From Candidatus Zambryskibacteria bacterium RIFOXYD1_FULL_40_13 (GTDB lineage: Bacteria > Patescibacteriota > Minisyncoccia > Phycocordibacterales > DATDWN01): DNA of 64,000 nt. Below the pieces are notes generated by a model. That model was not told the origin of the DNA. It did not search any database and worked only from the letters and a program-made list of their open reading frames with translations. Of this stretch, positions 13,796 through 54,069 are shown in pieces. The stretch covers positions 5,034 through 69,033 of the forward strand of contig MHWY01000001.1 in NCBI GenBank assembly GCA_001824295.1, written 5' to 3'. A program made the position numbers and the translations under genes. Every line of letters starts with the position of its first letter. Position 1 is the first letter of the stretch.

Positions 13796-13837
13796 ACATA
13801 TAGGATAGCACGAATTTTATGGTACGAAAAAAGTCTT

Positions 13838-13868
13838 GTGCGTGCTTGGGGGGCCACGATGCCCCCCA
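13838..13868 (-). terminator. GC-rich hairpin plus T-run
   Basis: cttggggggc cacgat gccccccacacaag, T-run on minus strand. Confidence 0.45.
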
Positions 13869-13877
13869 CACAAGACC

Positions 13878-14054
13878 TCAGAGATGCCCACGAAGGTAGA
13901 CTGCCTGCTCCTCTTCTGGTAGTGGAACCTTGTCAGCGTCCACTTCCCAGAGAAGACACCCGCCACATTTCTCACTTCGACAGATGTAGTAACTCTGTTG
14001 AACAATGTACACTTCACACCCACAAAAAGGACAGATTTTTTTGTCGTCTTCCAT
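13878..14054 (-). CDS. small zinc-ribbon protein (GC-rich island 4)
   Basis: CPFCGC ... CRSEKCGGC two CxxC pairs; GGGGGA SD-like before second ATG (MEDDKK...). Confidence 0.4.
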   Translation of the reverse strand: MEDDKKICPFCGCEVYIVQQSYYICRSEKCGGCLLWEVDADKVPLPEEEQAVYLRGHL

Positions 14055-14132
14055 GTGTCCCCCAAAAAACAAAAGTGACCCAACGGGTCACACCCACAAG
14101 ATAATAACACAATTCCTCTATACGAAAAACCC

Positions 14133-14169
14133 CGTGCGCTGAGGGACCCCACGTTGGGTCCCGCGCACG
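14133..14169. terminator. nested GC-rich hairpin between island-4 genes
   Basis: cgtgcgc tgag ggaccc cacgtt gggtcc cgcgcacg. Confidence 0.4.
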
Positions 14170-14178
14170 AGGCATGTA

Positions 14179-14802
14179 CTATCTGTTGGTACGCCTCAGA
14201 GAGACGAGGACGATAATTCCACACAGAATAGCACAGGAAAAGGGATACAACCTCTCTTCGACAGTCCAACCCTTACCACCTACCACTGACAACACATTGA
14301 CAAAGGTATAGCCAGTGTAGATGAGCCAGGGTGATTCCTCTGGCCTACGCCACGAATCCCGAAGTTGAGGGAAACCACCAAGGACAACGCCGGTTGTGGA
14401 TAGCACTGTGGCAAGCCAGGGGTTGTCGTATCCCCAAACGATGACACACCACGCGGTCAGACAAACCACAACCAGTATCGAAACTCTCGTTTCCACTCTG
14501 GTCCAGTTATAGTTGCCGGACTTCAGGATGCACGTAACGACAAGCGTACACCCAAAGACATAGGCAACTGGTAGCTGAAAATTTCCGCCCGCCACAAAGA
14601 TTGATGCACCCGCAAAAGCATCAAGTGACCCCCACAAGATAAAAGTCGCAAGATTCTGCGTTACTTTCCTCGTGAGAATCTGATACGAGAGAGGGAGGTA
14701 GAGGATGAGTGCTACGACGACGCTCACCTTCTGGTAAATATTCACTGTGACCCCTCCTGTTTGCTCATGGGCAACATACCCACCCACCTTAAAGATTAAC
14801 AT
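14179..14802 (-). CDS. hypothetical polytopic membrane protein (GC-rich island 4)
   Basis: about 6-7 predicted TM helices; GC-rich; alternative GTG start with AGGAGG SD about 18 codons downstream of the first ATG. Confidence 0.45.
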   Translation of the reverse strand: MLIFKVGGYVAHEQTGGVTVNIYQKVSVVVALILYLPLSYQILTRKVTQNLATFILWGSLDAFAGASIFVAGGNFQLPVAYVFGCTLVVTCILKSGNYNWTRVETRVSILVVVCLTAWCVIVWGYDNPWLATVLSTTGVVLGGFPQLRDSWRRPEESPWLIYTGYTFVNVLSVVGGKGWTVEERLYPFSCAILCGIIVLVSLRRTNR

Positions 14803-26728: not shown

Positions 26729-26758
26729 ATTATAAGTGAACTGCGGTTCACCTGTCAA
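26729..26758 (-). promoter_or_regulatory. sigma70 promoter with embedded Cheo-type LexA box (GAAC-N4-GTTC)
   Basis: minus strand reads TTGACA gg tGAACcgcaGTTCac tTATAAT; palindrome gtgaactgcggttcac at 26736-26751 lies in the spacer. Confidence 0.6.
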
Positions 26759-26837
26759 TAATATAACTGTGGATAACCTTTGACAGCAATAGGAATGGTG
26801 ATAGTCTAAATATTAGACACCCCAACCAGGAGGAGCC

Positions 26838-27056
26838 ATGGTAGCCCACGACCCGAGATTCGAGGTAATGGTCACGTACTTTCAGGAGTTCGACCACAGG
26901 ACAACAGTCCCTCACCACTTCCCAATTGAGATGGAAGTCAAACTCGGCCAGATCTTCACATGGACCTGTGGGCAGTTCACGGGTACGGCGGAAGTGGTAG
27001 GTATCATCGGCGAATCCGGCAACAGGCGCCGAGTACTCATTCGCAAACTGAGCTAA
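26838..27056 (+). CDS. hypothetical 72-aa protein, paralog A (GC-rich island 5)
   Basis: AGGAGG SD 4 nt before ATG; aligns with paralog B over P-x4-VK-x-G...VVG core. Confidence 0.5.
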   Translation: MVAHDPRFEVMVTYFQEFDHRTTVPHHFPIEMEVKLGQIFTWTCGQFTGTAEVVGIIGESGNRRRVLIRKLS

Positions 27057-27070
27057 GACAGTCGCACACA

Positions 27071-27109
27071 CCCGCCAGGACACCTCGTCTTGGCGGTTTC
27101 GCTTTTTTT
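27071..27109 (+). terminator. intrinsic terminator copy 1 (cccgccagg acacctcgtc ttggcgg tttcgcttttttt)
   Basis: GC-rich stem, T-run; near-identical copy at 27424. Confidence 0.55.
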
Positions 27110-27180
27110 AATAACTCAAAACTATTTGGATTTGAGACAAACACATGATAGACTGTCGCAGGAACCAGGAGGAGGACACG

Positions 27181-27399
27181 ATGAGGAACGACTTGTCGCC
27201 ACTCGATCTTTCTGCAACACAGTATGGGCTGTTGTTCCTAAACGAAACAGCCTTGATTGCGGTCCCGTCGCACTGGTATGTGAAGACGGGAGACAAGCTT
27301 CGAGCACAATACGCGTTCAGTGAGTTCGTGGTTGTTGTGACAGCGACCACACCACTTGTCCCGAAGTACACCACCTTGTCACTGGAAAAAGAACAATAG
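27181..27399 (+). CDS. hypothetical 72-aa protein, paralog B (GC-rich island 5)
   Basis: AGGAGGAGG SD 6 nt before ATG 27181 (ORF track start 27145 is upstream in frame); same length as paralog A. Confidence 0.5.
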   Translation: MRNDLSPLDLSATQYGLLFLNETALIAVPSHWYVKTGDKLRAQYAFSEFVVVVTATTPLVPKYTTLSLEKEQ

Positions 27400-27423
27400 A
27401 GAGACAAGGAAATTCCCACCCAC

Positions 27424-27457
27424 CCCCCGCCAGGACACCTCGCCCTGGCGGTTTCGC
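27424..27457 (+). terminator. intrinsic terminator copy 2 (cccccgccagg acacctcgcc ctggcgg tttcgc)
   Basis: same stem-loop as 27071 with two substitutions. Confidence 0.45.
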
Positions 27458-27459
27458 AT

Positions 27460-27948
27460 CTATACGATATTTCCTATCACTGGGTTAACGATTTTAATAT
27501 AATCTTCTGCCCTCATTCCTATAGAGAAACTCTTGTCACCAGCGTTAAAAATAATTTTTTCATTCGCAAGAAGGCCCCTATCAGCATATACAGGAAGTCC
27601 AAACAAATTTCCGAAGGGTGGAACACCACCAAGCAAGACGCCGTCAGTAATCTTCAGAACCTCTTCCTCTGTGGCAAATCTAATATCAGAGAGACCAAAC
27701 TCCTCCCTTATTTTAGTTGTGTCAAACTTCTTGCTTCCCTGCAAAACAAACATAACAAAAAGTTTACCCTCTCCCGGTTTTTTTACTCGAGTAATAAGAG
27801 CTTTTGCGCCCTGATCCATGTTATATCCAGAGCGAACCTTGGAAGCCTCTTCGCTAGTACGAACAGGTTCGTGCTCAAATGTTTCAAACCAAAAACCTCC
27901 TTCTGTAAGAATTGCTTTTATTTTTTCTGTTAGAGGGTGGTAAGACAT
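27460..27948 (-). CDS. ybaK: YbaK/ProX-type aminoacyl-tRNA deacylase
   Basis: GGVPPFG motif, about 160 aa single-domain. Confidence 0.7.
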   Translation of the reverse strand: MSYHPLTEKIKAILTEGGFWFETFEHEPVRTSEEASKVRSGYNMDQGAKALITRVKKPGEGKLFVMFVLQGSKKFDTTKIREEFGLSDIRFATEEEVLKITDGVLLGGVPPFGNLFGLPVYADRGLLANEKIIFNAGDKSFSIGMRAEDYIKIVNPVIGNIV

Positions 27949-27980: not shown

Positions 27981-29006
27981 CTATAAAGCAAATTCACACC
28001 CCATGTGCTCAATTCCCAAAAGATATTTCTCACAAAAAGCAGTCTTCTTATCACCTACCATAAATTCCGGAGCAAAAGCCTTTATGTCAAAAGGATAAAT
28101 AGTAAAAACTTTCTTGTCTTCCCAGAATTCGACACCAGCACCAAGCCCCACCATTGTATCCCCAAAGTTCTGGTCAAAAACAAAATTACCAAGTGAGTAG
28201 AACACAACTCCACCATTATATATTTCTACAGGCTCAACCACATGAGGGTGGTGGCCAAAAATGACATCAGCGCCAGCATCTATAAGCTTGTGAGCAATCA
28301 AAACCTGCGCCTCTGTTTTGCCCAATTCATATTCTGTTCCCCAATGGATATTTACAATAACAAAGTCGTTCTCAGATTTTAGTTTTTGTATCAAGGGATA
28401 ATAGTTTGGGATTGATGCTGGAGAAACAGTCTGGTCCATGCCGACAAAGGCAAACCTCTTACTATCTATTGTTTTCAAAAAGTAACTTTTTTCCACCTCA
28501 CTATCACCCATATACGGAATACCAGCTTCACTCAAATACTGTTTTGTGCTTTTAAAACCAGCACTGAAACAATCATAACTATGGTTGTTTGCAATATTAA
28601 CCATGTTTATACCCGCACTTATAAGCAATTCTGGAGTGGTAGAAGCGAATTGAAAATTGTAGGCCTTTTTCTGACACTTACTTCTATCCATTTCTACAAT
28701 AGGACCCTCTAGGTTAAGTCCGATAATATCGTAACCCCTAATCATTTCAAAATCTCTTTTTATATATTCAAACGGGTCTCTTCCGCGCTTATCTATTATG
28801 TTTCTAACCCCCCTATCAAACATAGCATCACCAAAATTTATAACTGATGGGTAATTTTTTTGAGTCACTTCTTTGCTAATCACACCTGCAACATTAGACT
28901 CCATTCTGTCCTTTGGTATATTAAATGAGTGGTTATAAATATAAAAATTTGTACTAAAAAAAAGAAGCAGAGACAGACCAAGTAATAAATAATATCTAGG
29001 TTTCAT
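27981..29006 (-). CDS. CapA-family metallophosphatase (poly-gamma-glutamate synthesis-like)
   Basis: N-terminal signal/TM, VNIHWGTEY...GADVIFGHHPHV motifs. Confidence 0.7.
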   Translation of the reverse strand: MKPRYYLLLGLSLLLFFSTNFYIYNHSFNIPKDRMESNVAGVISKEVTQKNYPSVINFGDAMFDRGVRNIIDKRGRDPFEYIKRDFEMIRGYDIIGLNLEGPIVEMDRSKCQKKAYNFQFASTTPELLISAGINMVNIANNHSYDCFSAGFKSTKQYLSEAGIPYMGDSEVEKSYFLKTIDSKRFAFVGMDQTVSPASIPNYYPLIQKLKSENDFVIVNIHWGTEYELGKTEAQVLIAHKLIDAGADVIFGHHPHVVEPVEIYNGGVVFYSLGNFVFDQNFGDTMVGLGAGVEFWEDKKVFTIYPFDIKAFAPEFMVGDKKTAFCEKYLLGIEHMGCEFAL

Positions 29007-29035
29007 ATAATCAATCCTAACATAAATACAAAACG

Positions 29036-29062
29036 GGCGGTCCCACGAAGGAACCGCCCGTC
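29036..29062 (-). terminator. GC-rich hairpin plus T-run after island-6 gene
   Basis: cgggcggtcc cacgaa ggaaccgcccg, T-rich on minus strand. Confidence 0.5.
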
Positions 29063-29083
29063 AAGGGAACCCGACAGAACAAT

Positions 29084-30040
29084 CTAGCGAACGGGAGGCC
29101 GATTGCCCTTCTCGACCGCCTTCAGAAGCTGGAGCGTACGTCCGTCCCTGAATGCGTTCCAGGCAGTGATGCACTGCCTGAACATGAACTCTTGCGACAC
29201 GATCTTCTTGTCGCTGTGTGAGCCCATGCCGGAGTCGACGGCGGCGCGCTGGAGCTCGTTGCGGAGCTTGAGACGAGGGTCACCGACTTTCTCGATGCCC
29301 GTTCCGGTCGCCACCGGAATCCAGAACTCCACCGCGATCTGCGACGCCTTGTTGAAGGTGGCAAACATCGCCCCGACCACCGGCGCGCGGAGAAGATGCT
29401 TGTAGTCCCGGCTCGAGTGCTTGTCAAGGAAAGCGCAGACCTTCCGAGCGAGGTCGTAGTGGTCCGTCTTGATCAGGAAGGCCACGTCGTCCCCATCGTG
29501 AATCCGCCGCTCGTGTTTTGTCTTCCACATCCACATGGCAAACCCCATGGGAACGACACGCAGTGTGTTGGATTTCACACCCTCGAACTCCGGCGTGCCG
29601 GCGAGGTAAGACGTGATGACGTTAGCGCGCGTCCTCGGCGAGGAGCGATCGATGGACGCGTACAGAATGCGCATGTCCTCAACCGACTTCGCCGTATACT
29701 CGAGCATGGTCACGTTGCACTCGTAGCTGGGCGGCATGTAGATCCTGGCCCACGCCGTATGCTGACCGTTCATCCGGTAGGTCTTACCGTCGAACTTGCA
29801 GATGACGAGATTGACCCACTCGGGGTGGAACGTTCCACGTTCCATGGTCTGGATGAGGTAGTCGACGTGCGAGTTCTTCAGCGTCCGCTCGCCGACGAAC
29901 TCCTCGTGCCCGAGAAGCTTCTCGGCTTCAGCCCTGGTGAAGTTAACCTTCCGACTAGTGACGAGTTTCAGCCCGTCACCAAGCCCAGTGACATTCAACA
30001 CCTCAGGACGCGGTCCGGCACTTTCGTACTTACCACTCAT
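29084..30040 (-). CDS. hypothetical 318-aa protein (GC-rich island 6)
   Basis: AAGGAG SD 8 nt before ATG (MSGKYE...); GC-rich; no confident domain. Confidence 0.5.
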   Translation of the reverse strand: MSGKYESAGPRPEVLNVTGLGDGLKLVTSRKVNFTRAEAEKLLGHEEFVGERTLKNSHVDYLIQTMERGTFHPEWVNLVICKFDGKTYRMNGQHTAWARIYMPPSYECNVTMLEYTAKSVEDMRILYASIDRSSPRTRANVITSYLAGTPEFEGVKSNTLRVVPMGFAMWMWKTKHERRIHDGDDVAFLIKTDHYDLARKVCAFLDKHSSRDYKHLLRAPVVGAMFATFNKASQIAVEFWIPVATGTGIEKVGDPRLKLRNELQRAAVDSGMGSHSDKKIVSQEFMFRQCITAWNAFRDGRTLQLLKAVEKGNRPPVR

Positions 30041-30209
30041 GACACACTCTCCTTGTAGCGTTTTGTTTTGAAGGAACACCGCTGTTGGGTGTGTTCGGGA
30101 TAAAACGCCTAAATATACCCTTTATTAGGACTATCTCGAGAAACACTCTTTTGATTTGTCCTAATAATTCTAAGACAACCATATCTAAATTAAAAAATCT
30201 GTCAAGTGT

Positions 30210-31889
30210 TTAGTTTGATAAAAACAATCTTCCTAAACGTAGTTTGAGATAACTAGTTTTCTTCTTTTGTTTGGTTAGAAAATTATAAACCGGAGAGAGG
30301 GTGGTAGTTTTACACTTTTTAAACGCAAGAAGGATGTCGTCTAGTTCACTCCTTTTTAACTCCCTCTTTAGATAAGTAACGTCCGGACATTTATTTTCAG
30401 CAATTAAATCTTCTATGTGTGAAACTATGGTTTCCTGCTTTACCCCCCTGGCTTCAGCAATATCCTTGAGTGGAACTTCTTCGGCCAGAAAACCCGCTGT
30501 GATTTCTTGTGATGATTTCTTAACCTCCCTATTTTGCTCTTTTTCTTTTCGTCGAATTTTTATTTTTTCTTCTGGCTCAATCTTTCGGAGCCACTCTTTT
30601 TGTTTTTCTAAAATTTCTTCCTTGGTCATTTCCTGCAATTTATCAGCTTCAGACTCAGACATTTTTTGAAATTCCAAATCTTTCTCCAAAACCTCTCCAT
30701 CTACTTCAAGCGACATCTCGTTGAAACCAAGAAGCTTCATACCATCGAGAGATCTGACGCGCGAAAGCGCCACATACCCCATCCCCCTTACAAAGGATTT
30801 TGACAAGTCTACTTCCATGGCATCTAGGGACATTCCCTGACTTTTGTGCACAGTGATGGCCCAGGCTAAACGAAGAGGTAGCTGGGATATTTCTGCCTTA
30901 ACCTTCCCTTCCTCCTCAATTTTCCACAACTGAGGGGTTACAGAAAACCTCATCCCATTATTTGTCTCTACGGTTGGGTCACCAAAATTATTGAAATCAA
31001 CCACAACACCCAAGGTACCGTTTACATATCCCCCTTCCATGTGGTTCTTGGTAAACATAACCCTTGCGCCGATTTTCAGTTCCAGTATTTCTGGAGAAAG
31101 ACAACTCTTTTTCAATGTCTCTACCAAACCGCGAGAGCCTCTGGAAGTCATATGATAACTTCTGGTGTCATTACTGATTAAGTCCAGGTGCCTTTTGTTT
31201 ACCACATCTACATCTATATTATGAGTATAAAGTCTGGTAGATTCTCTGGCTGACTGCGGATCTTTGTTAAAGCGACTTTTCAAAAGCTCTATTGTTTTGT
31301 CTGTAACTTTGTTTTGTCTAATCTGATTCAATATAGAAAGATATATATTGTCTCTCTGACGATGTTGCTCTGATATGTGACAAATAGTCAGTTTAGCGTC
31401 CTTCCAACACTCGGCCTTATAAGCAAACTCAGATTCAACTATTTCCCCACGAGTAATTGGTGGGAGCTGAAAAAAATCTCCAGATAGGACGACCTGCATT
31501 CCACCAAAAGGCTTCTCGTTGTGTTTCATCTGCCTGCATATCCACTCTATCAAATCCAGTCTAAAATGATGAAGCATTGATACTTCATCAATAATCAAAA
31601 CTTTGGTCCTATCAAATCTCTTATACAAATACGCTCTCTGCATCATTTCATCTATATCGTAGTCGGTCAGAATATCACGAATACCAATACCCGACCAAGA
31701 ATGTATCGTCTGTCCACCAAGGTGGGTCGCTGCTATACCGGTAGATGCGGTCACCGCCACATCCACTGCATGTGATTTTAAATATTGAATGTAGGAGTTA
31801 AGCACATGGGTTTTACCGCTCCCCGCAGGACCGGTCAGAAAAACATTTTTACCCATTTTTAATATATCCAGAGCTTCTTGTTGAGTCAC
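30210..31889 (-). CDS. SF1B helicase, Pif1/RecD family
   Basis: LTGPAGSGKTHVL Walker A, IIDEVSML Walker B, SGDFFQLPPI motif; C-terminal extension. Confidence 0.7.
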   Translation of the reverse strand: MTQQEALDILKMGKNVFLTGPAGSGKTHVLNSYIQYLKSHAVDVAVTASTGIAATHLGGQTIHSWSGIGIRDILTDYDIDEMMQRAYLYKRFDRTKVLIIDEVSMLHHFRLDLIEWICRQMKHNEKPFGGMQVVLSGDFFQLPPITRGEIVESEFAYKAECWKDAKLTICHISEQHRQRDNIYLSILNQIRQNKVTDKTIELLKSRFNKDPQSARESTRLYTHNIDVDVVNKRHLDLISNDTRSYHMTSRGSRGLVETLKKSCLSPEILELKIGARVMFTKNHMEGGYVNGTLGVVVDFNNFGDPTVETNNGMRFSVTPQLWKIEEEGKVKAEISQLPLRLAWAITVHKSQGMSLDAMEVDLSKSFVRGMGYVALSRVRSLDGMKLLGFNEMSLEVDGEVLEKDLEFQKMSESEADKLQEMTKEEILEKQKEWLRKIEPEEKIKIRRKEKEQNREVKKSSQEITAGFLAEEVPLKDIAEARGVKQETIVSHIEDLIAENKCPDVTYLKRELKRSELDDILLAFKKCKTTTLSPVYNFLTKQKKKTSYLKLRLGRLFLSN

Positions 31890-31896
31890 CCAAACA

Positions 31897-32580
31897 TTAT
31901 ACCTTTTTGCTTTTTATCTTCCAGTTTTCAATATTTTTATGATTTCCAGACAACAACACTTTTGGCACTTTGTATTTTTTACCCTTGTATTCAAAAACTT
32001 CTGGTCTGGTGTAAACATCATGACTGGAAATACGAGATTCTTCCAAAGAATCAAAATTGCCGAGGACCCCCTCCACCTGCCTTGCCACACAATCCAAGAC
32101 AACCATAGCCGGCAATTCCCCACCGGTTAATATGAAAGGCCCGACAGAGATTTCTTCCATCTTGAAAACTTTTTTTACTCTGGCATCTATTCCCTCGTAT
32201 CTTCCACAAACAAGAATTATGTCCGTATATTTTTTCGCCGTCTTCTTTGCATAATCTGTATCAAACTGTTTGCCTCCAGGTGAAAAGAAAATGATTTTGA
32301 CTTTCGTATTTCTTGGATTTACTTTCGTCCTTCGCCTTTTGCCTTTCACCTTCGCAAGCGCTTTCTCTATTGCTTTTATTACTGGCAACGCTTGTAGCAC
32401 CATCCCAGGTCCTCCACTGTACGGCTTCTGGTCAACCCTTTTCCACTTATCACTAGAATAATCTCGTGGGTTATAAAAACTTACTTTTATTTTTTTGTCT
32501 TCTATGGCACGAGAAATAATCGACTCGTTTAGATACGAGCTGAAACTGTCAGAAAATAATGTGATTATGTGAAATCGCAT
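31897..32580 (-). CDS. trmD: tRNA (guanine37-N1)-methyltransferase
   Basis: MRFHIITLFSDSF ... PYSGGPGMVL SPOUT knot motifs. Confidence 0.85.
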   Translation of the reverse strand: MRFHIITLFSDSFSSYLNESIISRAIEDKKIKVSFYNPRDYSSDKWKRVDQKPYSGGPGMVLQALPVIKAIEKALAKVKGKRRRTKVNPRNTKVKIIFFSPGGKQFDTDYAKKTAKKYTDIILVCGRYEGIDARVKKVFKMEEISVGPFILTGGELPAMVVLDCVARQVEGVLGNFDSLEESRISSHDVYTRPEVFEYKGKKYKVPKVLLSGNHKNIENWKIKSKKV

Positions 32581-32688
32581 TTAGTATTTATAACACAAAT
32601 TTTGAATTCAGTACAGAAAAACACCCTCTTTCGAAGGGTGTTGCTTGTCCGCGACTGAATCCCCAAATGATCAGTCGCGGACAGCTTG

Positions 32689-32991
32689 TCACTCAGAAAC
32701 CACAATCTCCTTGGGTTTCATCAACGTCGGGCAGGTATCACCATCAAACCATACGTCGATGATGTTGGAAGTGTATCCCGGTGTCCCCGGCTCGACCAGA
32801 TTGACAATCGTACCAGACGCACCAGCGGGCACATTGGAGTGACGACCGTTTGATGCCACACGGGCACCAAGATAGAATACCTGCTCCGTGGATTGCGAGA
32901 TACCAACAATCCTCCCACTAACGGCTCGCCGCCCGACACTAAACCCTCCTGCCACTGTCACCACGAGGTCACCACATTTCGGGTGCTTCAT
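32689..32991 (-). CDS. hypothetical 100-aa protein (GC-rich island 7)
   Basis: GC-rich; TTGACA-type promoter upstream on minus strand; two hairpins downstream (32641-32680 perfect 12-13 bp stem). Confidence 0.4.
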   Translation of the reverse strand: MKHPKCGDLVVTVAGGFSVGRRAVSGRIVGISQSTEQVFYLGARVASNGRHSNVPAGASGTIVNLVEPGTPGYTSNIIDVWFDGDTCPTLMKPKEIVVSE

Positions 32992-33116
32992 AACCCCACC
33001 AACCCTTTCTGGTACCCAGGTACCAAGTTAACATTCCTACTTTGATAATACTGTATAATTTACTTATGTCAAGTATACGAAAAGGAGGGGCTACGTAACC
33101 CCCCCATGGACAGAGC

Positions 33117-33473
33117 TTAGGCAGCCGGTTTGTCATCACCGCCATGCCAGTGAGCTAAAATAGACCTCTTCAACTCCCTCTGCTGGCGAAACTGGTCAAT
33201 GCTGACCACCTTTTTCCTCATAATCCCCCGCCGGTGAATCGCTTTGTACGACCACCAAAATGGTAGCCACGCCCAAGCAACCACACCAACAAAAATAAGG
33301 ATGACCAATCCCGACACGAAGGTCTCTCGTTCAGAGTGGGTCAAACTCCGAACGAAGACGATTAGACCCCTGTACATCTGGGGTCCACTTCCAGCAATGA
33401 TGATGCCATAGATGATGGCCACCGCCACAACGACTGACAACGTAACTGCTCTCTTGATGGTGTGTGTTAACAT
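33117..33473 (-). CDS. hypothetical 2-TM membrane protein (GC-rich island 7)
   Basis: AGGAGGTG SD 3 nt before ATG (MLTHTIK...); two hydrophobic helices. Confidence 0.45.
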   Translation of the reverse strand: MLTHTIKRAVTLSVVVAVAIIYGIIIAGSGPQMYRGLIVFVRSLTHSERETFVSGLVILIFVGVVAWAWLPFWWSYKAIHRRGIMRKKVVSIDQFRQQRELKRSILAHWHGGDDKPAA

Positions 33474-33668
33474 ACCCACCTCCTACTATTATTATAACAT
33501 ATAAAAACAAAAAACACCATATAGGTGTCTTTTGTTAAGTTTATATTTTCAAAATCCTAAAAGATAATTGTGGATGAAGTTCAAGGCGCGACGTTTTGTT
33601 TGTGACCAAGCTGTATAGAAATACTGCGCATGGAACAAATAAAACTAGCAACGCAGAAATTCGCCAAA

Positions 33669-33983
33669 TTAGATTTTTAGGTCGGCCATGGCGTCATCTA
33701 GGGATTTGGTCGCTCCCGCCTTCACCTCCGGCATAGCCCCTTCTGGTTCATTTATTTTAAGGTTTACCCGTGAGTTATTCTTCATTCCCACAACACGAAG
33801 TAGTGTTCTGATAGCCTTTGCTGTATTACCCTCACGACCGATTATTTTACCCATATCATCCTTATGAACATCTAGGTTCATAAGTACCCCCATCTCATCT
33901 ACAGTTCTCACAATCTTCACGTCTTCTGGATGCTCAACTAACGCCTTAACAACGAAATCTAAAAATTGTACGTCTTTTTCCAT
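33669..33983 (-). CDS. KH-domain RNA-binding protein (YlqC-like)
   Basis: GKIIGREGNTAKAIRTLL GxxG KH motif; conserved position next to rpsP. Confidence 0.7.
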   Translation of the reverse strand: MEKDVQFLDFVVKALVEHPEDVKIVRTVDEMGVLMNLDVHKDDMGKIIGREGNTAKAIRTLLRVVGMKNNSRVNLKINEPEGAMPEVKAGATKSLDDAMADLKI

Positions 33984-34128
33984 GATGAATTCTATCGATT
34001 AATTGTAAAAGAATACGGTTTTATTATATCAACAAAAATCAAAAATCGTCAACATGGTGGTGAATCCCAACCCACTCCCTAGGTGTTGGTAACCGTGAGC
34101 TAAGACCCACCACTAGATTGACGAATTT

Positions 34129-34566
34129 TTAGGCTTCTATTTTCTCTGCAACTGGGGTAGGCGCCTCCTCAGATACTGCCTCGGCAGGAGTTTCGTCTAG
34201 AACCACAGGTTCAGCGGGAGATTCAAGAGAAGCACTCTCTTCTGCTACTGCAGGGGAAGCCTTTGGCTCTTCCACAGCCTCTTTCAAAATAGCTTTCTTT
34301 AGTGGCAAAACATTAACTTTCTTACCAGTAATAATTTTCTTACTTATTAGAATATTATGAACAGTTCCAGAGACCTGAGCACCCTTTGATATCCATTCTG
34401 ATATCTTGTCAGCCTTAAAGTTTGAGGCCTCGCCGTGTCTTGAGTCATAACTGCCAAGATTTTCCAAATATCTTCCACTTTTTGTTGAGTTTTTTGAGTC
34501 AGTCAAAACCAAGCGAAATGTCGGTTCGTGCTTTCTTCCTACTCTTTGTAGTCTTATCTTTAACAT
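34129..34566 (-). CDS. rpsP: 30S ribosomal protein S16 with Ala/Glu/Pro-rich C-terminal extension
   Basis: MLKIRLQRVGRKHEPTFRLV N-terminus typical of S16. Confidence 0.8.
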   Translation of the reverse strand: MLKIRLQRVGRKHEPTFRLVLTDSKNSTKSGRYLENLGSYDSRHGEASNFKADKISEWISKGAQVSGTVHNILISKKIITGKKVNVLPLKKAILKEAVEEPKASPAVAEESASLESPAEPVVLDETPAEAVSEEAPTPVAEKIEA

Positions 34567-34599
34567 GGTGGCTATACTAACAGAATAGAACCAAATGGT

Positions 34600-34990
34600 C
34601 AAATGTGCCTTAGACAAAAAGGAATTCGCGACTTACGCCCGACCACGCGGACCGCACGAACCCCCTCTTCGCAAACGCCTGGTTCATCGGGCTACCTCCT
34701 CTTGGAGGCCGTTCCTCCTTCGCCTCTCTTCTTGAAGATACCTGGCTCTGTCGAGCCTGTTTTCGAGAACCCTGACCAGCTCCGGATTGCAGGTCAATGT
34801 CTTGAGGTAGCCAAGATGCATACCACTTTCGTCGAGGAGAAGCTGAATCTCCCCAACAGAGCTATGGGAGTCAAGCTCCCTTAGCTTTTGCGCATACTCA
34901 ACGAGTTCGCAAGGTAATTTGCGTGACAACACCTCACCCCTTTCAAGTGGGCCGGATTGGCCCGAGAACACCAAGCTTACCTAGCCAAAA
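34600..34990. other. GC-rich segment of unclear nature (island 8): ORFs only with TTG/GTG starts; possible ncRNA or degraded cassette
   Basis: ORF-track ORFs on both strands begin with non-ATG codons and lack a strong SD; GC clearly above flanks. Confidence 0.3.
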
Positions 34991-35034
34991 TATAGCATTT
35001 ATCCCAAAAACAGTAAATGTGTTATAGTATTTTG

Positions 35035-36966
35035 ATGAAAGAGCAGAAAAACAAGAAAACTTTAGTTGGCCCAATCAGCATCAACACAAAAGGTGTTGGC
35101 TTTTTTGACATCCTAGACAAAGACAGCATTGAGATACAACCAGAGTTTGTACACCGTGCATTCCATGGTGACACTGTTGAAATTTCTTTAACGGGAAAGA
35201 AAATAAAAAACAGAGAACAAGGAAAAGTAACCAAAATAGTAAAGAGAGTTAAAGATGAGTTTGTGGGGGTGATAGATAGACATGACGGTAGCACTTTTAT
35301 CATTCCGGACGACAAAAGATTATATGTGGATATTTTCCTACCAAACGAGCCAAAGGTTTCCGAGGGAGATAAGGTTTTGGTGAAAATCACAGACTGGGAA
35401 TCAAAAAATCTGGAAGGAAAAATAATAAAAGTCATTGGCAAAAAAGGTGAAAACAATACAGAGATGGAATCCATTGTTCTGGAAAAAGGATTTCGCATTG
35501 AATTCCCTACCGAAGTAACAACAGAAGCTGAAAGGATAAAAAGTGAATACAAGGCACATTTTGAAGAAGAGGTAAAAAATCGCAGAGACATGCGTAAAGC
35601 TTTAACCATGACCATAGACCCCGCCGACGCCAAAGACTTTGATGACGCCATTTCCTTCAAAGATTTGGGGGGCGACCAATACGAGATAGGTATTCATATT
35701 GCCGATGTTTCCTACTTTGTCACTCCAGGAACCAAGCTTGACCGTGAATCAGAAAAGCGTGGACTTTCTGTCTATCTTGTAGATAGAACAATACCCATGT
35801 TGCCGGAGGTGTTATCAAATGACCTGTGCTCTCTCAACCCAAACGAAGATAAATTTACTTTTTCTGCTGTTTTTACAATGACAGGAGAAGGAAAAGTTTT
35901 AAAAGAATGGTTTGGTCGCACATCAATACACAGTGACAAGAGATTTTCATATGAAGAAGCACAGGAAGTAATAGATGGAAAAAAGCCAGGTCCACACCAG
36001 TTAGAACTTCGTAAACTAAAAGATATAGCCCAGAAACTAGAGAAGAAAAAAAGTAATGAAGGTGCAATGGTTTTTGATACCGAAGAAGTAAAGTTTGAGT
36101 TAGATAAAACAGGCAAGCCAATCCGTGTATATAAAAAAAGCCGACTAGAAACACACAAACTAGTTGAAGAGTTTATGTTACTTGCAAACCGTGCTGTGGC
36201 AAAATTTGTTTTCCTTTCACAAAATAAAGATTTAAGAAAAAAAGGTTCACAGTCTGTTTATAGAATTCACCCTAAACCAGACCCAGAGCGAATACAAACT
36301 CTAGCAACATTTCTTAAGGCAATGGGTTTTGATTTAAAAAACAAGGATGGTGTAGTTACTTCAAAAGATTTAAACGCCTTATTGAAGGAAGCCAAAGGAA
36401 CTCCAAACGAAGAACTCATAAACACTGCAACTATTCGCAGTATGGCAAAGGCAACATATTCTACAAAGAACATCGGGCATTTTAGTTTGGCCTTTGCTTA
36501 CTACACCCACTTCACTTCACCAATCAGAAGATACCCAGATGTCCTTGTTCATCGTTTTCTAGAGCGTGAATTAAAAGGAGGGAAAATAGAGAAAGATGAA
36601 TATCAAAAGTTTGAAAGTATTTGTTTGGCTTCTTCTGAGTTAGAGAAAAAAGCATCGGACGCCGAGAGAGCAAGTATAAAATACAAACAGGTAGAATATA
36701 TGACAGAGCATGTCGGAGAAGAATTTAATGGATCAATTACGGGTGTGACTGAATGGGGCATCTATATAGAAGACAAGGAAACAAAATGTGAAGGTATGGT
36801 AAAACTTCGTGACCTCGACGACGACTACTATGTTTTAGACGAGAAAAATTACACGGTCAAAGGAGAGAAAAGTGGACGAAAATTTACCCTGGGAGATTCC
36901 GTAAGATTTAAAGTCGTATCTGCTGATATGGAAAAAAGAGTTTTGGATTACAAACTGGTTAGCTAG
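35035..36966 (+). CDS. rnr: ribonuclease R / RNase II family exoribonuclease
   Basis: RNB domain motif DPADAKDFDDAISF, N-terminal cold-shock-like and C-terminal S1 regions. Confidence 0.85.
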   Translation: MKEQKNKKTLVGPISINTKGVGFFDILDKDSIEIQPEFVHRAFHGDTVEISLTGKKIKNREQGKVTKIVKRVKDEFVGVIDRHDGSTFIIPDDKRLYVDIFLPNEPKVSEGDKVLVKITDWESKNLEGKIIKVIGKKGENNTEMESIVLEKGFRIEFPTEVTTEAERIKSEYKAHFEEEVKNRRDMRKALTMTIDPADAKDFDDAISFKDLGGDQYEIGIHIADVSYFVTPGTKLDRESEKRGLSVYLVDRTIPMLPEVLSNDLCSLNPNEDKFTFSAVFTMTGEGKVLKEWFGRTSIHSDKRFSYEEAQEVIDGKKPGPHQLELRKLKDIAQKLEKKKSNEGAMVFDTEEVKFELDKTGKPIRVYKKSRLETHKLVEEFMLLANRAVAKFVFLSQNKDLRKKGSQSVYRIHPKPDPERIQTLATFLKAMGFDLKNKDGVVTSKDLNALLKEAKGTPNEELINTATIRSMAKATYSTKNIGHFSLAFAYYTHFTSPIRRYPDVLVHRFLERELKGGKIEKDEYQKFESICLASSELEKKASDAERASIKYKQVEYMTEHVGEEFNGSITGVTEWGIYIEDKETKCEGMVKLRDLDDDYYVLDEKNYTVKGEKSGRKFTLGDSVRFKVVSADMEKRVLDYKLVS

Positions 36967-37018
36967 CCCTTTCTTTTTCTCCAAAAGTGTTATATAATAT
37001 AGAAGGAGGTGTCACGCC

Positions 37019-37447
37019 ATGGTAGCAAGAGTGTTACAGTGGCTTCAGGTGATGCCACTGAAAAAGAAACGGGAGAAAAAACTCCGCGGAATCGCTCTGG
37101 CGGTCAAAACCGCGGGGGACATCGCAGAAGCCGGAAGGCTTGATGTCGTAGAGAGAGACCACAATCCCCCGATGGGAGTCTGCGCCAGAATCCAAGTTCA
37201 TACTAGGTTCATGGTCCTTACTCGGGTGAAAGATGTGGAGCCACCGGCATACTTCCCAGAGTGGAAAGAATTCTGGTGGTGGATTAATCTCCGCCCACGG
37301 CACTTTCCGGCAACTCCAGAAGAGCCGTCGCCACATATTCCAGGGGCGCGTGAGATTCACTGGATTGAATTCCGGTTCGAGAGAAGAACAGATTGTCGGG
37401 AGCTCTCCGACCCCAGCACGCACCTCACGATTAAGTCGTGGGAATAA
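37019..37447 (+). CDS. hypothetical 142-aa protein (GC-rich island 9)
   Basis: GAAGGAGGTG SD 6 nt before ATG; terminator-like hairpin cccccaagc...gctttggggg + T after stop; a 160-aa antisense ORF overlaps. Confidence 0.45.
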   Translation: MVARVLQWLQVMPLKKKREKKLRGIALAVKTAGDIAEAGRLDVVERDHNPPMGVCARIQVHTRFMVLTRVKDVEPPAYFPEWKEFWWWINLRPRHFPATPEEPSPHIPGAREIHWIEFRFERRTDCRELSDPSTHLTIKSWE

Positions 37448-37698
37448 CCCCCAAGCAAGTCGTCTGCGTGACGGCAAGCTTTGGGGGTTTTCGTATGTAA
37501 AAATCTTACTGACCAAAAAACATGTTAGCTCTGAGGATTTTTGTTCGAGTTTGAAATGAGTGATTTATTAAAAGACGCTAAACTTCCAAATCTAGATGAA
37601 ATCCGACGTGAGAAATTAAAAAGGCGAAGAGCCTTACTTGTCGTAAGGTGATGAGCATTTTTAATTTGGGAACGAGGAGTTCGCCAGATTTGGAAGTT

Positions 37699-40032: not shown

Positions 40033-40689
40033 TCATTGTGTGCTTACCACCCCCTTCTTGCCGTAGTTCTTGAACACCATCACGTGGAAAACAAGCTGGT
40101 TAAATTCCTCAACAAAAATCAGCTCGCCTTCCTGCATTTTTTTTGTCAGATACTCTCGTATCCAGTTGATGTCACCCTTCTTGGCGATATCAACCGTAGA
40201 GCCCGTTAGGTGAGATGACCTCCGAGGACCAGTCGTCTCCACTGCATTAGAGTTTATCTTTGCGATAACTCTTTGTCGTGGCACAGAACGAACTGCTGAA
40301 TTCACTTGGACTGGGTCGGTGAATCCAGTCTGAAACGCATGGGCAAGGCCCAAGTCGTCCAGAAAACTGCGAGTCCACGGGAGACAATAGCGGTACTGTG
40401 CTGGTAGTCGGTAGTCTACCCGCACAAACAGGTTGTGAGGAAGGGGTGCAAGGGTGCCGTCTTTGACAAGCCTTGCCAGCTGTTTGTCGTTCTTGATTTT
40501 GACCAACCCTTCTCTGTCTGCCTGTTCATTCTGCCTTATCGCAAGCTCTCTCCGCTCCTCTATCGAGAGCTTATGTATCTCTGTTTGTGGGGATAGTGGA
40601 TTTGGCATAGTCCAAACCACATCACCAAACCACAAAAGAGAAACTAGTAAACAAAACGTGGTCCTAGTCAGCATGTGCTGTCCTTTCAA
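40033..40689 (-). CDS. secreted peptidase M15-like protein (moderately GC-rich)
   Basis: N-terminal signal peptide; SSHLTGSTVDI resembles S-x-H-x2-G-x3-D zinc-binding motif of VanY/M15 peptidases. Confidence 0.45.
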   Translation of the reverse strand: MKGQHMLTRTTFCLLVSLLWFGDVVWTMPNPLSPQTEIHKLSIEERRELAIRQNEQADREGLVKIKNDKQLARLVKDGTLAPLPHNLFVRVDYRLPAQYRYCLPWTRSFLDDLGLAHAFQTGFTDPVQVNSAVRSVPRQRVIAKINSNAVETTGPRRSSHLTGSTVDIAKKGDINWIREYLTKKMQEGELIFVEEFNQLVFHVMVFKNYGKKGVVSTQ

Positions 40690-42791: not shown

Positions 42792-43412
42792 TTATCTAAA
42801 TCTTTTGCAAAAAGTCTTACGGTGTATGCTGGATAATCCACATTTGCTCACAGCTTTGCAGTGCTGTTTTGTCCCATATCCCTTATGACTTTCAAATCCA
42901 TATTGAGGATATTTCTTTGCCAATTTACACATCAGGGCATCCCTAGAAACCTTGGCTAATATTGAAGCCCAAGCTATTATTCTCTCCTTCTCATCTCCTT
43001 TTATTATTGTTCTTTGTTTTGTAAATTCGCTTGGGGCTCGAAGACCCCCATCAAGCAAAACTTCGCATTGTTTTGGATTAAGGTTTAGTTTTTTTATACC
43101 TTGATTTATAGCTTTCCTTATGCAAAAAGCGATTCCCTTTTCATCTATCACTTTATTAGAAACATGAATTATTATATATTCTAAGTTTCCCTTTTGTACA
43201 AGGTGGAACCTTGTACTGAGTATTTTTAAATATTTGGCGTATTGTTGGCGTAGTTCTGGAGAAAGTTTCTTACTGTCTTTTCCTGTTGGTGGTAAATACC
43301 TATCTTTCTTTAATTTCTTATAGAGTCCTAGTTCGCAAACAGCAATACCAACCGTCACTGGCCCCGCCAAAGGACCTCTCCCGACTTCATCTATGCCCAC
43401 AATGTATTTCAT
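42792..43412 (-). CDS. rnhB: ribonuclease HII
   Basis: GIDEVGRGPLAGPVTV catalytic N-terminus. Confidence 0.85.
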   Translation of the reverse strand: MKYIVGIDEVGRGPLAGPVTVGIAVCELGLYKKLKKDRYLPPTGKDSKKLSPELRQQYAKYLKILSTRFHLVQKGNLEYIIIHVSNKVIDEKGIAFCIRKAINQGIKKLNLNPKQCEVLLDGGLRAPSEFTKQRTIIKGDEKERIIAWASILAKVSRDALMCKLAKKYPQYGFESHKGYGTKQHCKAVSKCGLSSIHRKTFCKRFR

Positions 43413-43558
43413 CCCATCATTTTATCATATACGAAAACCCGGTAGTGAATTTTAGCATTAGACTTTGTCCGCTCTGAAAGAGCAATGCTAAAATCTACTA
43501 CCGGGAGAAGAGCCGTCGGCGTGCACCTGGCACGCGGACAGCCCTTTAGAAAACAGCA

Positions 43559-43795
43559 TCAGATACCGACCCCTCTCTCACGGCCCGCCCTGATCCACCT
43601 AACAATGCGAGAGTTGTCCCCCCGCAATGTTTCAACTTCAGTCCGCAGGTCAGCGAGTTCGCGCACCGCGTCCGCGACACTGTGCCACAAGGCCTCCTCT
43701 GCTGAGCCGGGCTTTGCCCTCTGGCCCTCTGTCACGACAATCGCCTCCATCTCATCGATGGGAATCAGAAGCACTCTACCGCCAGTCTTCGACAT
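43559..43795 (-). CDS. hypothetical 78-aa protein (GC-rich island 10)
   Basis: AGGGAGGG SD 7 nt before internal ATG (MSKTGGRVLLIP...); ORF-track start is TTG. Confidence 0.4.
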   Translation of the reverse strand: MSKTGGRVLLIPIDEMEAIVVTEGQRAKPGSAEEALWHSVADAVRELADLRTEVETLRGDNSRIVRWIRAGRERGVGI

Positions 43796-43894
43796 GTCCA
43801 CTGCCCTCCCTATCCCCAAAATACCACCAAATCACCTCTATATCAACCCCCCCTCTCCACCACACTGATGACATGCTATAATACAGTCACAAAA

Positions 43895-44017
43895 AATAAT
43901 CTCGATGAGTAATATCTTGAGAAGAGACTAGTGAGCGCGACGGCGCGAACTCAAGCAAAATTTCAGCAGAAATTTATGCGTGTCTCTTCGAGAGATATTA
44001 CGAGTAAGAGATTATTT
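43895..44017 (-). repeat. palindromic structured element family 1, copy 3 (inverted, immediately upstream of dnaE)
   Basis: core gcaaaatttcagcagaaatttatgcg is the reverse complement of the conserved hairpin in copies 1-2; flanked by an imperfect about 34-nt inverted repeat. Confidence 0.5.
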
Positions 44018-49537: not shown

Positions 49538-49648
49538 CAGATTTGGATGACTTCCGCATAGAACTTTCAAATTTGAGACAAGGTCGCGTATAAAATAAAA
49601 AGTATTTCCGGAGGTGTACATGTGGTACATTGACGGAAATACTTTTTA
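49538..49648. repeat. intergenic repeat family 2, copy C
   Basis: shares two sequence blocks with 9921-10000; contains hairpin aaaagtatttccg ... cggaaatactttt. Confidence 0.35.
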
Positions 49649-49680
49649 TTTTAGACGATGAGATTGGCCAAATTTGGAAG

Positions 49681-52451: not shown

Positions 52452-52714
52452 ATAATTTAATTATACACAATACACTGGTTTGACAAGACCCGATAAATAA
52501 AATACAGTTCATAGTATGAATCCGCAAAAACCGATCGCTTCGAAAAACATTGGTGCAGTTCACTTTTTTTGGACTCTGTTTCCAGAGCCTATTTTTGCGT
52601 TTATGAAATAACTATCTAACACATCATAAACATAAAAATGGACTCTGGAAACGGAGTCCATTTTTTGTTACCACAGTTCTTTCACATCAACCAACAACAA
52701 ACAAGGAGACCACA

Positions 52715-53830
52715 ATGTTCAAAGTGAACCCGGCAAGCGTCAACGACCTCCTGCACCTCGTGGCAACGGGCGCTCCCGTGACCATGACCTCCCATCCTGG
52801 GAACGCATCACTCTACAAACTCTCCCTGTGGGCTTGTGGAATACCTGAGCACCTCTGGGATATCACCTGCTGTAAAGCAGACGCCAACAATTGGCCGATG
52901 TTCCGGCTGGTCGAGGGGCGTGCTGAACTCCTGATTGACGAAGGGTTGTATCAGAGAATCATGACTGAGACAAACCCAAGCAAAAGGTTCGTCACCGCCT
53001 ATCAAGAAACCACAAGCGGAGAACGCCTTGGACGCACCCATGTCAGAGCTTGTGAGGCTTGTTTTCCGAAAGCAATCTCGTCGTGCTCGCGCCTCATCCT
53101 TTCGGAAAGCAACAAAGCCAAGGAGATGTTTTTGTACTTGGCCGAAACCAAGAGGGACGAGGTATTCACACGCAGAATCGACCACGAGGGCGTGATGACG
53201 CCGGTCTGCTCGCACGGCCAGAGCTCGGTTGAGGTTGTCGAGTCATTTTTTAATGTTCTCGGCGAACTGGACCACCTGCTCTTCAGTGACGAGCAAATCA
53301 CCACATTGGGTGGAATCTGCTACGACGGCGTGATGGTTCCCCTCGCCACCATGCTCTGCCAGTATTGGCAGATGGGTCGAATCGACCGCTACGACATCTC
53401 TGGCCCCGACATGATTCACTACGCATCACAAAACGGGTTTCAGGGTGATATGTCACGCATGCTCGCCCATCTTCGGAAATGGAATCCGAAACTTGTTCCT
53501 CCCACCATTGTTACCCGGATGTTTCCCGGAACTGTGGCGAGAATCGGGCACATAAGGAATCATGTTTCCGAGGAAGTCATGACGAGAAAGGTACAAGCCC
53601 TTAGAAGTCCTCCAGCCGGGGAGTGGAAGAAGAGGCTCTGGGAAGTGGCCAAGGAAGATGAGGCCAGCTGGCCAATACAGGTCAAGCCAGCGCAGGACCA
53701 CTACTTCTCCCAACACGACTTGCTGGCCCTCGGGAAGGAGCTTTTGGTTGATGAGTACTGGAGAGAGATTCCGCTTGAGAATATGCGTGAAACTCTCGCC
53801 AGAGCCAACTCCCTACTTCGCTTGAGGTAG
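52715..53830 (+). CDS. hypothetical 371-aa protein (GC-rich island 11)
   Basis: AAGGAG SD 7 nt before ATG; terminator aaccccac...gtggggtt + T at 53843-53880; no confident domain. Confidence 0.5.
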   Translation: MFKVNPASVNDLLHLVATGAPVTMTSHPGNASLYKLSLWACGIPEHLWDITCCKADANNWPMFRLVEGRAELLIDEGLYQRIMTETNPSKRFVTAYQETTSGERLGRTHVRACEACFPKAISSCSRLILSESNKAKEMFLYLAETKRDEVFTRRIDHEGVMTPVCSHGQSSVEVVESFFNVLGELDHLLFSDEQITTLGGICYDGVMVPLATMLCQYWQMGRIDRYDISGPDMIHYASQNGFQGDMSRMLAHLRKWNPKLVPPTIVTRMFPGTVARIGHIRNHVSEEVMTRKVQALRSPPAGEWKKRLWEVAKEDEASWPIQVKPAQDHYFSQHDLLALGKELLVDEYWREIPLENMRETLARANSLLRLR

Positions 53831-54069
53831 TGCGGGCATGGCTTAACCCCACTGACTGAACATCGGTGGGGTTATTTTGTATATGTGTGGATGTTTATGT
53901 TATACTCTACTTATGTGCAAAAGCTTACAGCAAAACATAGCGTTCTTCTTTTTTGGCTATTTTCTCGAAGGCTGATGCTTGCGCTGTAGAAATCTCCAAA
54001 ATACAACCCAAACACCAGCCTTCGAGGCTGGTGTTTACTTTTTATCAAATTTTAACTAGACTAAACAAC

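Follow-up and report, generated by a model that had tools for sequence, protein, structure and literature searches.

A GC-rich pair of predicted moron-like gene cassettes between a KH gene and trmD in a Candidatus Zambryskibacteria chromosome

Bacteria of the candidate phyla radiation (CPR, or Patescibacteria) have very small genomes and are believed to rely on other cells. We describe a small module in a 64-kb chromosome segment of one of them, a groundwater Candidatus Zambryskibacteria. The whole segment, referred to below as ‘the window’, has a GC content of 0.406 and carries genes of the rpoB/rpoC, gyrB, dnaE, SMC, RNase R, S16 and trmD type; it contains no tRNAs. Between trmD and the gene for a KH RNA-binding protein lies a GC-rich segment of ~0.9 kb with two minus-strand open reading frames (ORFs). 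The first specifies a 118-residue protein with two predicted transmembrane (TM) segments, here called TM118, and the second a protein of 100 residues, P100. In our view, held at a probability of about 0.75, these are two adjacent, self-contained accessory cassettes, similar in form to the ‘morons’ of phages, that occupy a horizontal-transfer hotspot: the gap between the terminator that follows the KH gene and the promoter of trmD. The locus is thus ordinary in kind, being a hotspot with horizontally gained accessory genes, but its chromosomal, moron-like form is unusually neat and GC-rich; the same form seems to be common across this CPR clade.

The module and the gap it occupies

Over ~32598-33487, between the KH gene and trmD, GC content runs at 0.50-0.55, against 0.406 for the window. 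P100 has a GC content of 0.54 and a GC content at third codon positions (GC3) of 0.56; for TM118 the values are 0.51 and 0.61, and for core genes ~0.40 and 0.32-0.41. An earlier, sequence-only reading of this DNA had drawn attention to a GC-rich, two-gene segment here, flanked by rpsP, the KH gene and trmD. Both ORFs are indeed present, the composition is as described, and the three flanking genes, all on the minus strand, are confirmed by Pfam. The signals of the two cassettes are listed in the direction of transcription; promoters, Shine-Dalgarno (SD) sequences and terminators are consensus predictions made from the sequence only.

33491-33499, minus strand: extended -10 TGTTATAAT of the TM118 cassette, read from the sequence, with no good -35 box
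33477-33484, minus strand: SD sequence AGGAGGTG of TM118, read from the sequence, 3 nt before the ATG at 33473
33117-33473, minus strand: TM118 ORF, 118 aa from the ATG at 33473 (120 aa from a GTG at 33479)
33078-33105, minus strand: terminator-like GC hairpin (33105-33084) and T tract after TM118; terminator scan, 9 pairs, 6 of them G-C
33045-33072, minus strand: sigma-70-type promoter of P100, TTGACA-16-TATTAT; promoter scan, 11 of 12 matches
33010-33025, minus strand: 16-nt palindrome TGGTACC-TG-GGTACCA in the P100 5' leader, between promoter and start codon, read from the sequence
32689-32991, minus strand: P100 ORF, 100 aa
32646-32658 / 32671-32683, minus strand: perfect 13-bp stem with a 12-nt loop, directly after the P100 stop; inverted-repeat search and fold
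32615-32642, minus strand: canonical intrinsic terminator AACACCCT-TCGAA-AGGGTGTT followed by TTTTT, at the end of the P100 cassette; terminator scan and fold

Each gene had been credited with a TTGACA-type promoter and a strong SD sequence. The promoter stands for P100 and the strong SD for TM118; the promoter scan finds no TTGACA-type site upstream of TM118, and the P100 SD (GGTGGGG) is the weaker of the two. The GC hairpin with T-rich tract reported after TM118 was seen again by the terminator scan, and the perfect hairpin of 12-13 bp reported after P100 proved to be a 13-bp inverted repeat. This hairpin has no second copy in the window; it folds jointly with the terminator behind it at -41 kcal/mol (z = -4.4). 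The start of the segment, set previously at 32640, needs correction: the 3' end includes the canonical terminator (32620-32642), which lies just outside that coordinate. The palindrome in the P100 leader may serve as an operator or form a leader hairpin. The start of P100 is overlapped by an upstream ORF of 21 codons, which begins at ATGTTAAC. Taken together, GC, GC3 and the predicted signals support the description of the segment as a compositionally foreign module of self-contained transcription units.

The junctions are not an artefact of assembly, because independent ENA, JGI and NCBI assemblies agree to within one base over the 12.3 kb around the module (five loci compared, with at most 1 mismatch). 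The gene neighbourhood is identical in all P100- or trmD-bearing contigs read, and the module is fixed in the sampled population.

The module is bordered on both sides by signals that belong to the core genes:

34129-34566, minus strand: rpsP, encoding S16 with a long acidic C-terminal extension; Pfam PF00886, E 2e-14; a 145-aa gene in public contigs
33669-33983, minus strand: KhpA-like KH RNA-binding protein, last gene of the upstream unit; Pfam PF13083 (KhpA/B), E 9e-21
33506-33536, minus strand: intrinsic-terminator-like hairpin and T tract ending the S16-KH unit; terminator scan, 13 pairs, and inverted repeat
32587-32595, minus strand: extended -10 TGTTATAAA of trmD, ending 6 nt before the ATG with no SD between
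31897-32580, minus strand: trmD, first gene of the trmD-PIF1 unit; Pfam PF01746, E 6e-38

The KH protein matches NCBIfam KH models below their curated cut-offs, and is 60-96% identical in relatives. Close relatives, including those in which the site is empty, also have an intrinsic terminator after the KH gene. The extended -10 of trmD (TGnTATAA) recurs at the same 6-nt distance in at least 18 relatives, and a TTTGTG(T/G)TATAA motif is conserved directly before trmD in the junctions read. In some relatives a TGTGGTAT-type motif is embedded, instead, in the terminator hairpin after the KH gene. The 6 nt between the extended -10 and the ATG contain no SD, and trmD is therefore probably translated from a leaderless mRNA in this subclade. 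The module had been pictured as an insertion into a single rpsP-KH-trmD operon. Since a terminator follows the KH gene even at empty sites, and since trmD has its own extended -10, the predicted signals place it rather in a terminator-promoter gap between two units that were already insulated, and ‘inserted inside an operon’ would overstate the case. In distant relatives the KH-trmD gap is 5-40 bp, and there the two genes are probably co-transcribed and have the look of a true operon.

The wider neighbourhood (30210-34566) is a remodelled rpsP-rimM-trmD-rplS cluster, with no rimM between the KH gene and trmD. The usual position of rplS, downstream of trmD, is occupied by a PIF1-like gene, as it is in most of the closer relatives. 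This gene encodes a helicase with a C-terminal HTH_40 domain, and starts 7 nt after the end of trmD.

Turnover of the gap among related species

Relatives were gathered by a TrmD scan of one genome per GTDB species. The scan yielded 80 loci, labelled Zambryskibacteria, Paceibacterota, Parcubacteria or Minisyncoccia, with TrmD proteins 63-80% identical to that of the window. The order RNR/S16/KH/trmD is kept in the 80 loci, and the PIF1-like gene lies downstream in most of them, the closer relatives. Not one of the 80 has a homologue of P100 or TM118 detectable by tblastn at E<=1e-4. P100 homologues of native composition at this position, which the sequence-only reading had named as the finding that would speak against acquisition, are absent from all of these species.

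The KH gene and trmD, and the interval that they flank, were both found in 78 of the 80 relatives. The gap measures 5-220 bp in 47 of these, and 265-1851 bp in 31. Where it is 299 bp or longer, it is usually GC-richer than the flanking genes (21 of 30 cases). Gaps of at least 250 bp contain 50 same-strand ORFs, and these fall into 40 clusters; four small families of slot genes are common to 2-4 species each, and are still GC-rich. A TM- or signal-like segment is present in 13 of 22 longest insert ORFs. The junctions that we read follow one plan: the KH stop and its terminator; one unit or two, each made up of promoter, SD, GC-rich ORF and terminator; and finally the trmD motif. Among the relatives closest by KH identity (94-96%; loci L010, L015, L017 and L023), the slot either lacks a cassette or holds an unrelated gene of 96 aa. 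The latter occurs in L017 (KH 96%), the closest relative by this measure to have an insert at all.

With constant core genes on either side, 40 clusters of ORFs within, and unrelated genes in the closest relatives, the KH-trmD slot behaves, to judge from these comparisons, as a miniature hotspot of horizontal transfer with fast turnover. Nor does the insertion look like the singular event it was first taken for: the same gap holds other small genes in ~30 relatives, and the window itself has ~12 GC-rich islets. For P100, horizontal acquisition within this species' lineage is the most likely history, given its GC3 (0.56 against 0.32-0.41) and its absence from the slot in all relatives.

How such cassettes might arrive can be outlined. 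Foreign DNA would be taken up, and would then be joined to the chromosome by illegitimate recombination or by recombination anchored in the flanking core genes. DNA landing in the gap would be tolerated, the essential genes on both sides being insulated already, and the terminators of the cassettes would prevent read-through into trmD. A locus of this kind would offer CPR bacteria a compact way to gain and express genes, even next to essential translation genes.

P100, TM118 and the alternatives

P100 belongs to a family. Against 1.8 billion cluster representatives, a full HMMER scan gave 37 matches at E<=1e-3, most of them 85-125 aa long, 34-48% identical and aligned over nearly the full length. 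They have in common the motif LGQrVxSNGR...GTxGxVV...EP...TsnvI.VwFeG....MKfKDL. A word-indexed search of 5.8 billion proteins returned P100 itself only. From a 24-member family alignment, AlphaFold2 predicts an all-beta protein (predicted local distance difference test, pLDDT, 90.7; predicted template modelling score 0.81); this model supersedes one made from the single sequence, which was unusable (pLDDT 38). In Foldseek searches, the C-terminal 60-65 residues superpose on PsaE, on the CPH domains of HERC2 and CUL7 and on the Spt5 KOW domain, with root-mean-square deviations of 1.8-3.4 A, and also, in BFVD, on many uncharacterised small phage proteins. The E-values are weak, at least 0.06 for the Protein Data Bank (PDB) and at least 0.0085 for BFVD. 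The model thus supports a soluble, all-beta protein whose C-terminal two thirds form an SH3-like barrel. Against the Pfam profile PF18129 (SH3_12, the SH3-like domain of Xrn1) P100 scores 27.8 bits, the cut-off being 26.2, but over 41 of 69 profile positions only. None of the 24 other family members scanned matches SH3_12 or any other Pfam family, and no NCBIfam, PHROG or PADLOC model matches P100 or its family. A sequence-profile search of the PDB gave matches to RecA only, which are spurious. With a conserved family and a confident model, P100 is a real gene of an undescribed family of small proteins.

The family travels through varied company. In L088-90 its genes lie between murL-like and Mur ligase genes, in L091 behind ileS and in L096 next to an integrase; L093-95 have them in arrays of small ORFs, and the related genome L025 has one in another slot. 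The copies that we read have their own promoter, SD and terminator, and in eight of nine contexts their GC3 exceeds that of the large host ORFs. One member (L094) sits in a context with a GC3 of 0.8; GC-rich carriers therefore exist. Among the contexts examined the gene mostly stands alone. In L025 (1054-1739) it is followed by a gene for a 137-aa multi-TM protein, stop and start overlapping as ATGA; in L091 (5001-5732) and L097 (2654-3382) it is directly followed by a gene for a 124-aa multi-TM protein of the PF04020 holin family.

TM118 is the more elusive of the two. Hydrophobic 19-mers start at residues 5 and 48, and give the two predicted TM segments; a basic C-terminal tail contains MRKKVVSIDQFRQ. 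Gene calls in public contigs include it at 118 aa. Searches gave no significant homologue, that of 5.8 billion proteins returning its own cluster only, and PADLOC, PHROG, NCBIfam and Pfam have no match. We regard it as a probable gene in view of its strong SD, its two clean hydrophobic segments, its basic tail and a GC periodicity of the coding type (GC1/2/3 = 0.50/0.42/0.61). That one or both ORFs are spurious, and the GC-rich DNA is non-coding (a structured RNA, or decayed foreign DNA in which high GC makes stops rare), is very improbable. The lack of TM118 homologues fits such a reading, as do the several overlapping ORFs (50-70 aa) found on each of the segment's strands; by our estimate, an open frame of 100-120 codons is not extremely unlikely to arise by chance at ~52% GC. 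Yet P100 has a family with invariant motifs and a confident fold, and TM118 combines its SD with an extended -10, a terminator, the two hydrophobic segments, a positive-inside tail and GC1 > GC2 < GC3. Nor is the segment a known RNA: it has no gathering-level match in Rfam, only chance-level ones at E>1.

In L022 and L031, two of the relatives, the place that TM118 takes in the slot is held by a two-TM protein (family D). The TM segments of the two start at the same positions (5-7 and 47-53), and the C-terminal motif of family D, MSRKVV(A/E)I(D/G)D(F/W)RK, can be set beside MRKKVVSIDQFRQ in TM118; this tail alignment scores above 99.9% of shuffles for L031 (p ~0.001) and above 93% for L022. 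Whole-protein comparisons by BLASTP, phmmer and hidden Markov model are not significant. Because topology, position and C-terminal motif are shared, TM118 may be a diverged counterpart of family D, a fast-evolving, older resident of the slot. The claim of recent acquisition is therefore reasonable for P100 and doubtful for TM118. Going further, one could suppose that both genes are ancestral and were lost in most relatives, their composition being due to amino-acid content rather than to foreign origin. The resemblance of TM118 to the L022 and L031 proteins suits that supposition, and so does the sharing of some slot cassettes by up to four species; P100-family genes, moreover, exceed their hosts in GC nearly everywhere, which is what a family under compositional constraint would show. 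We consider it improbable nonetheless. P100 is missing at the slot in all 80 relatives, including the four with KH proteins 94-96% identical; in most relatives the gap is too short for a gene; the GC excess lies at third codon positions (0.56-0.61 against 0.32-0.41), where amino-acid content does not explain it; and the kinship of TM118 with family D falls short of significance over the whole protein.

A different possibility is that P100 and TM118 make up one two-component system (phage-exclusion, holin-like or toxin-antitoxin-like), in which a cytosolic SH3-like protein would partner a small membrane protein, and that this was acquired as a pair. A small membrane-protein gene does lie beside a P100-family gene in three independent contexts (the window; L025; and L091, L092 and L097), so that a recurrent partnership may exist. 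TM118, small, with two TM segments and a charged tail, has a generic class-II-holin-like build, and there is precedent for a moron that is useful to its host in gp15, a moron product of phage HK97 (PMC3594210). But P100 and TM118 are predicted to be separate transcription units with a terminator between them, and the three neighbouring membrane proteins show no detected kinship: the L025 protein matches nothing in Pfam, and TM118 does not match PF04020. Five other P100-family contexts have no membrane neighbour, family D occupies the slot of L022 and L031 without a P100 relative, and neither protein is matched in PADLOC, PHROG or NCBIfam. We think joint acquisition as one system unlikely, and continue to favour two separate accessory cassettes at a hotspot. 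As to what they do, envelope- or interaction-related accessory functions are our guess.

Several points weigh against the reading of the module as acquired, self-contained cassettes. The promoters and terminators on which ‘self-contained’ depends are consensus predictions alone. The donor of P100 was not found, the nearest relatives of the protein being only ~40-45% identical, and P100, TM118 and the DNA of the module have no match in phage genomes, plasmids or IMG/VR contigs. The junctions show no direct repeats, terminal inverted repeats, target duplication or recombinase gene that would indicate a mechanism; direct repeats flanking the cassettes, in particular, were not supported by a repeat search. 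A duplicated promoter/5' region shared by the two cassettes was considered and rejected, the similarity of their leaders being within that of shuffled controls (p = 0.14). The assemblies of this species are near-identical, and a comparison of presence and absence within the species therefore gives no support. Finally, GC-richness is no clean clock of recency, since cassettes common to 2-4 species, TM118 perhaps among them, are still GC-rich; family-specific constraints or exchange within the clade could partly account for it.

Other elements of the window and comparison with known systems

The module is one of ~12 GC-rich islets in the window, which together amount to ~9.3 kb, or 14% of the sequence. 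The ORFs in the islets are unrelated to one another, and several islets have visible SD and terminator signals.

717-1655, 5071-5741, 8678-9068, 13763-14791, 26767-27513, 28961-30132, 34509-35007, 36961-37544, 40144-40635, 43340-43911, 52627-53909: eleven further islets between core genes, GC 0.48-0.56 against 0.41
26748-27440, minus strand: two ~35-nt GC-rich hairpin-like repeats, GCGAAACCGCCA(G/A)G(G/A)CGAGGTGTCCTGGCGG, flanking the ORF at 27108-27419 in another islet
29084-30040, minus strand: islet protein P331, 318 aa (331 aa from an upstream GTG at 30079), GC3 0.79
34684-34974, minus strand: islet ORF P96, between RNase R and rpsP, with a 37% identical counterpart in the same slot of L023 (4747-4980)
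40033-40689, minus strand: GC-enriched gene for a DUF5715 / peptidase M15-like protein; Pfam E 1e-17, homologues in L050 and L058

Twelve other islet ORFs were scanned, and gave two family matches only. One is the gene at 40033-40689, the only islet ORF with a clear Pfam family. The other is P331, which has the most foreign composition in the window and carries an SD and a terminator of its own; PHROG 5931 (unknown function; E 8e-14) is the one family it matches, and it has no match in Pfam or PADLOC and none in phage genomes. From the counterpart of P96 in L023 it follows that at least some islets are shared between species. For the five islets inside the 12 kb that the relatives cover, no homologue was detectable there, P96 excepted. 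Across related loci, GC-rich islets number ~1.3 per 10 kb, and they are commoner in the closer relatives. We found nothing specific in the literature on GC-rich islets of CPR bacteria or of Zambryskibacteria.

These islets invite a broader proposal, which we put forward tentatively and rate at somewhat less than an even chance: that much of the accessory genome of Zambryskibacteria and close Paceibacteria consists of moron-like, single-gene cassettes, independent of phages and undescribed for CPR. Each would be GC-richer than its host, would have its own promoter and terminator, and would often encode a small envelope protein. Housed in terminator-promoter gaps between core units, the cassettes would turn over rapidly from one species to the next; the present module would be an example, and the P100 family one circulating cassette. 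Foreign and orphan genes of bacteria are usually AT-richer than their hosts, and cassettes of this kind would run contrary to that rule. If the proposal is general, scans of composition could extract the fast-evolving, probably envelope- or interaction-related part of CPR proteomes; the fragmentation of classic ribosomal-protein operons in the clade would have an explanation; and the gaps would provide the future genetics of these uncultivated bacteria with natural, neutral landing sites that already have native promoter and terminator parts. Two new objects emerge in any case: an unannotated family of small, apparently SH3-like proteins, and a candidate structured hairpin repeat of 3' untranslated regions (3'-UTRs) that is outside Rfam.

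This hairpin, R1, shares the KH-trmD gap with the GC-rich module but is not part of it. Three copies were found in the window with a covariance model:

33563-33667, minus strand: structured hairpin element R1, ~105 nt, 118 bits, starting 2 nt after the KH stop
49566-49671, minus strand: R1, just after gyrB
9920-10023, minus strand: R1

The minimum-free-energy structure of the copy at 33563-33667 is one long hairpin (-31.9 kcal/mol, z = -2.9). Its outer stem is formed by CCTAAAA, which lies in the last KH codons, and TTTTAGG further downstream. The model found 14 further copies in related loci, at several unrelated positions (the loci bearing R1 are L017, L022, L031, L008, L039, L025, L033, L063, L036, L014 and L024), and 56 in 51 groundwater metagenome contigs that had been retrieved with the core pattern (L098-L148). 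The long hairpin is 92-93% paired, against 25-43% with slid partners, and compensatory changes occur in 15-18 of 24 pairs; the alignments were fitted to the model, and these counts accordingly lean towards structure. Just outside the model the flanks are mutually complementary but differ from copy to copy, giving a longer stem. R1 starts 2-20 nt after the stop of a same-strand ORF in 35 of 51 copies, and only five abut a convergent ORF. G-U pairs are frequent on the R1 strand, which favours a sense-strand RNA over a DNA palindrome. It has no Rfam match and no copy in viral contigs. R1 looks like a candidate for a new 3'-UTR RNA motif, or for a repeat of Zambryskibacteria-type genomes akin to repetitive extragenic palindromes or miniature inverted-repeat transposable elements. 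The cassettes of L022 stand between a forward copy and a diverged inverted one. The idea that R1 delivers or marks cassettes found no support: most gaps with cassettes have no R1, L024 has R1 and no cassette, and the metagenomic copies are not consistently beside GC-rich DNA.

How does the module compare with systems already described? Models of anti-phage defence and of toxin-antitoxin systems (PADLOC-DB, NCBIfam and Pfam) match neither P100 nor TM118, Pfam giving SH3_12 only. TM118 is like the class II holins in architecture alone (118 aa, two TM segments, basic tail); it matches no Pfam or PHROG holin family, and its neighbours are P100 and the KH gene rather than a lysin. The closest known fold for the P100 model is that of the SH3-like small beta-barrels (a group with PsaE, KOW, Tudor, CPH and PWWP), from which no ligand or function can be transferred.

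Integron cassettes are also small genes of diverse composition, arrayed head-to-tail at one site, and the palindrome-like hairpin after P100 recalls their recombination sites. Integron ORFs, however, are promoterless and are followed by attC, whereas P100 and TM118 have promoter-like sites and intrinsic terminators of their own. The hairpin after P100 is unique and perfect and, as we read it, has no recognisable R''/R' core sites of attC; with a single copy in the window, it was rejected as a repeated or attC-like site. Public gene calls include no recombinase-like ORF within 12 kb around the module; no integrase scan of the whole window was made.

A closer parallel is the hotspot of horizontal gene transfer, which Oliveira et al. 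2017 (PMC5635113) describe as an interval between the same core genes that holds varied accessory genes with fast turnover. The KH-trmD interval, with its 40 ORF clusters in ~30 genomes, resembles such hotspots and the replacement-type flexible genomic islets. It differs from them in that its inserts are tiny (one or two genes, 0.3-1.9 kb) and include no mobile-element genes, in that each gene read has its own promoter and terminator, and in that the inserts are GC-richer than the host.

The closest likeness in form is to the morons of HK97/HK022-type phages. Morons are single genes inserted between two conserved neighbours; each brings a promoter and a terminator of its own and has a deviant GC content (PMC3594210). 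The module, too, has predicted promoters and terminators of its own and a deviant composition, and is extra DNA by comparison with syntenic relatives. Unlike a moron, it lies not in a prophage but in a cellular region of core chromosomal genes (rpoB/C, gyrB, dnaE, SMC, S16, trmD), and its proteins have no PHROG match and no similarity to phage genomes or viral contigs. By analogy, then, the module would work like a moron without being one.

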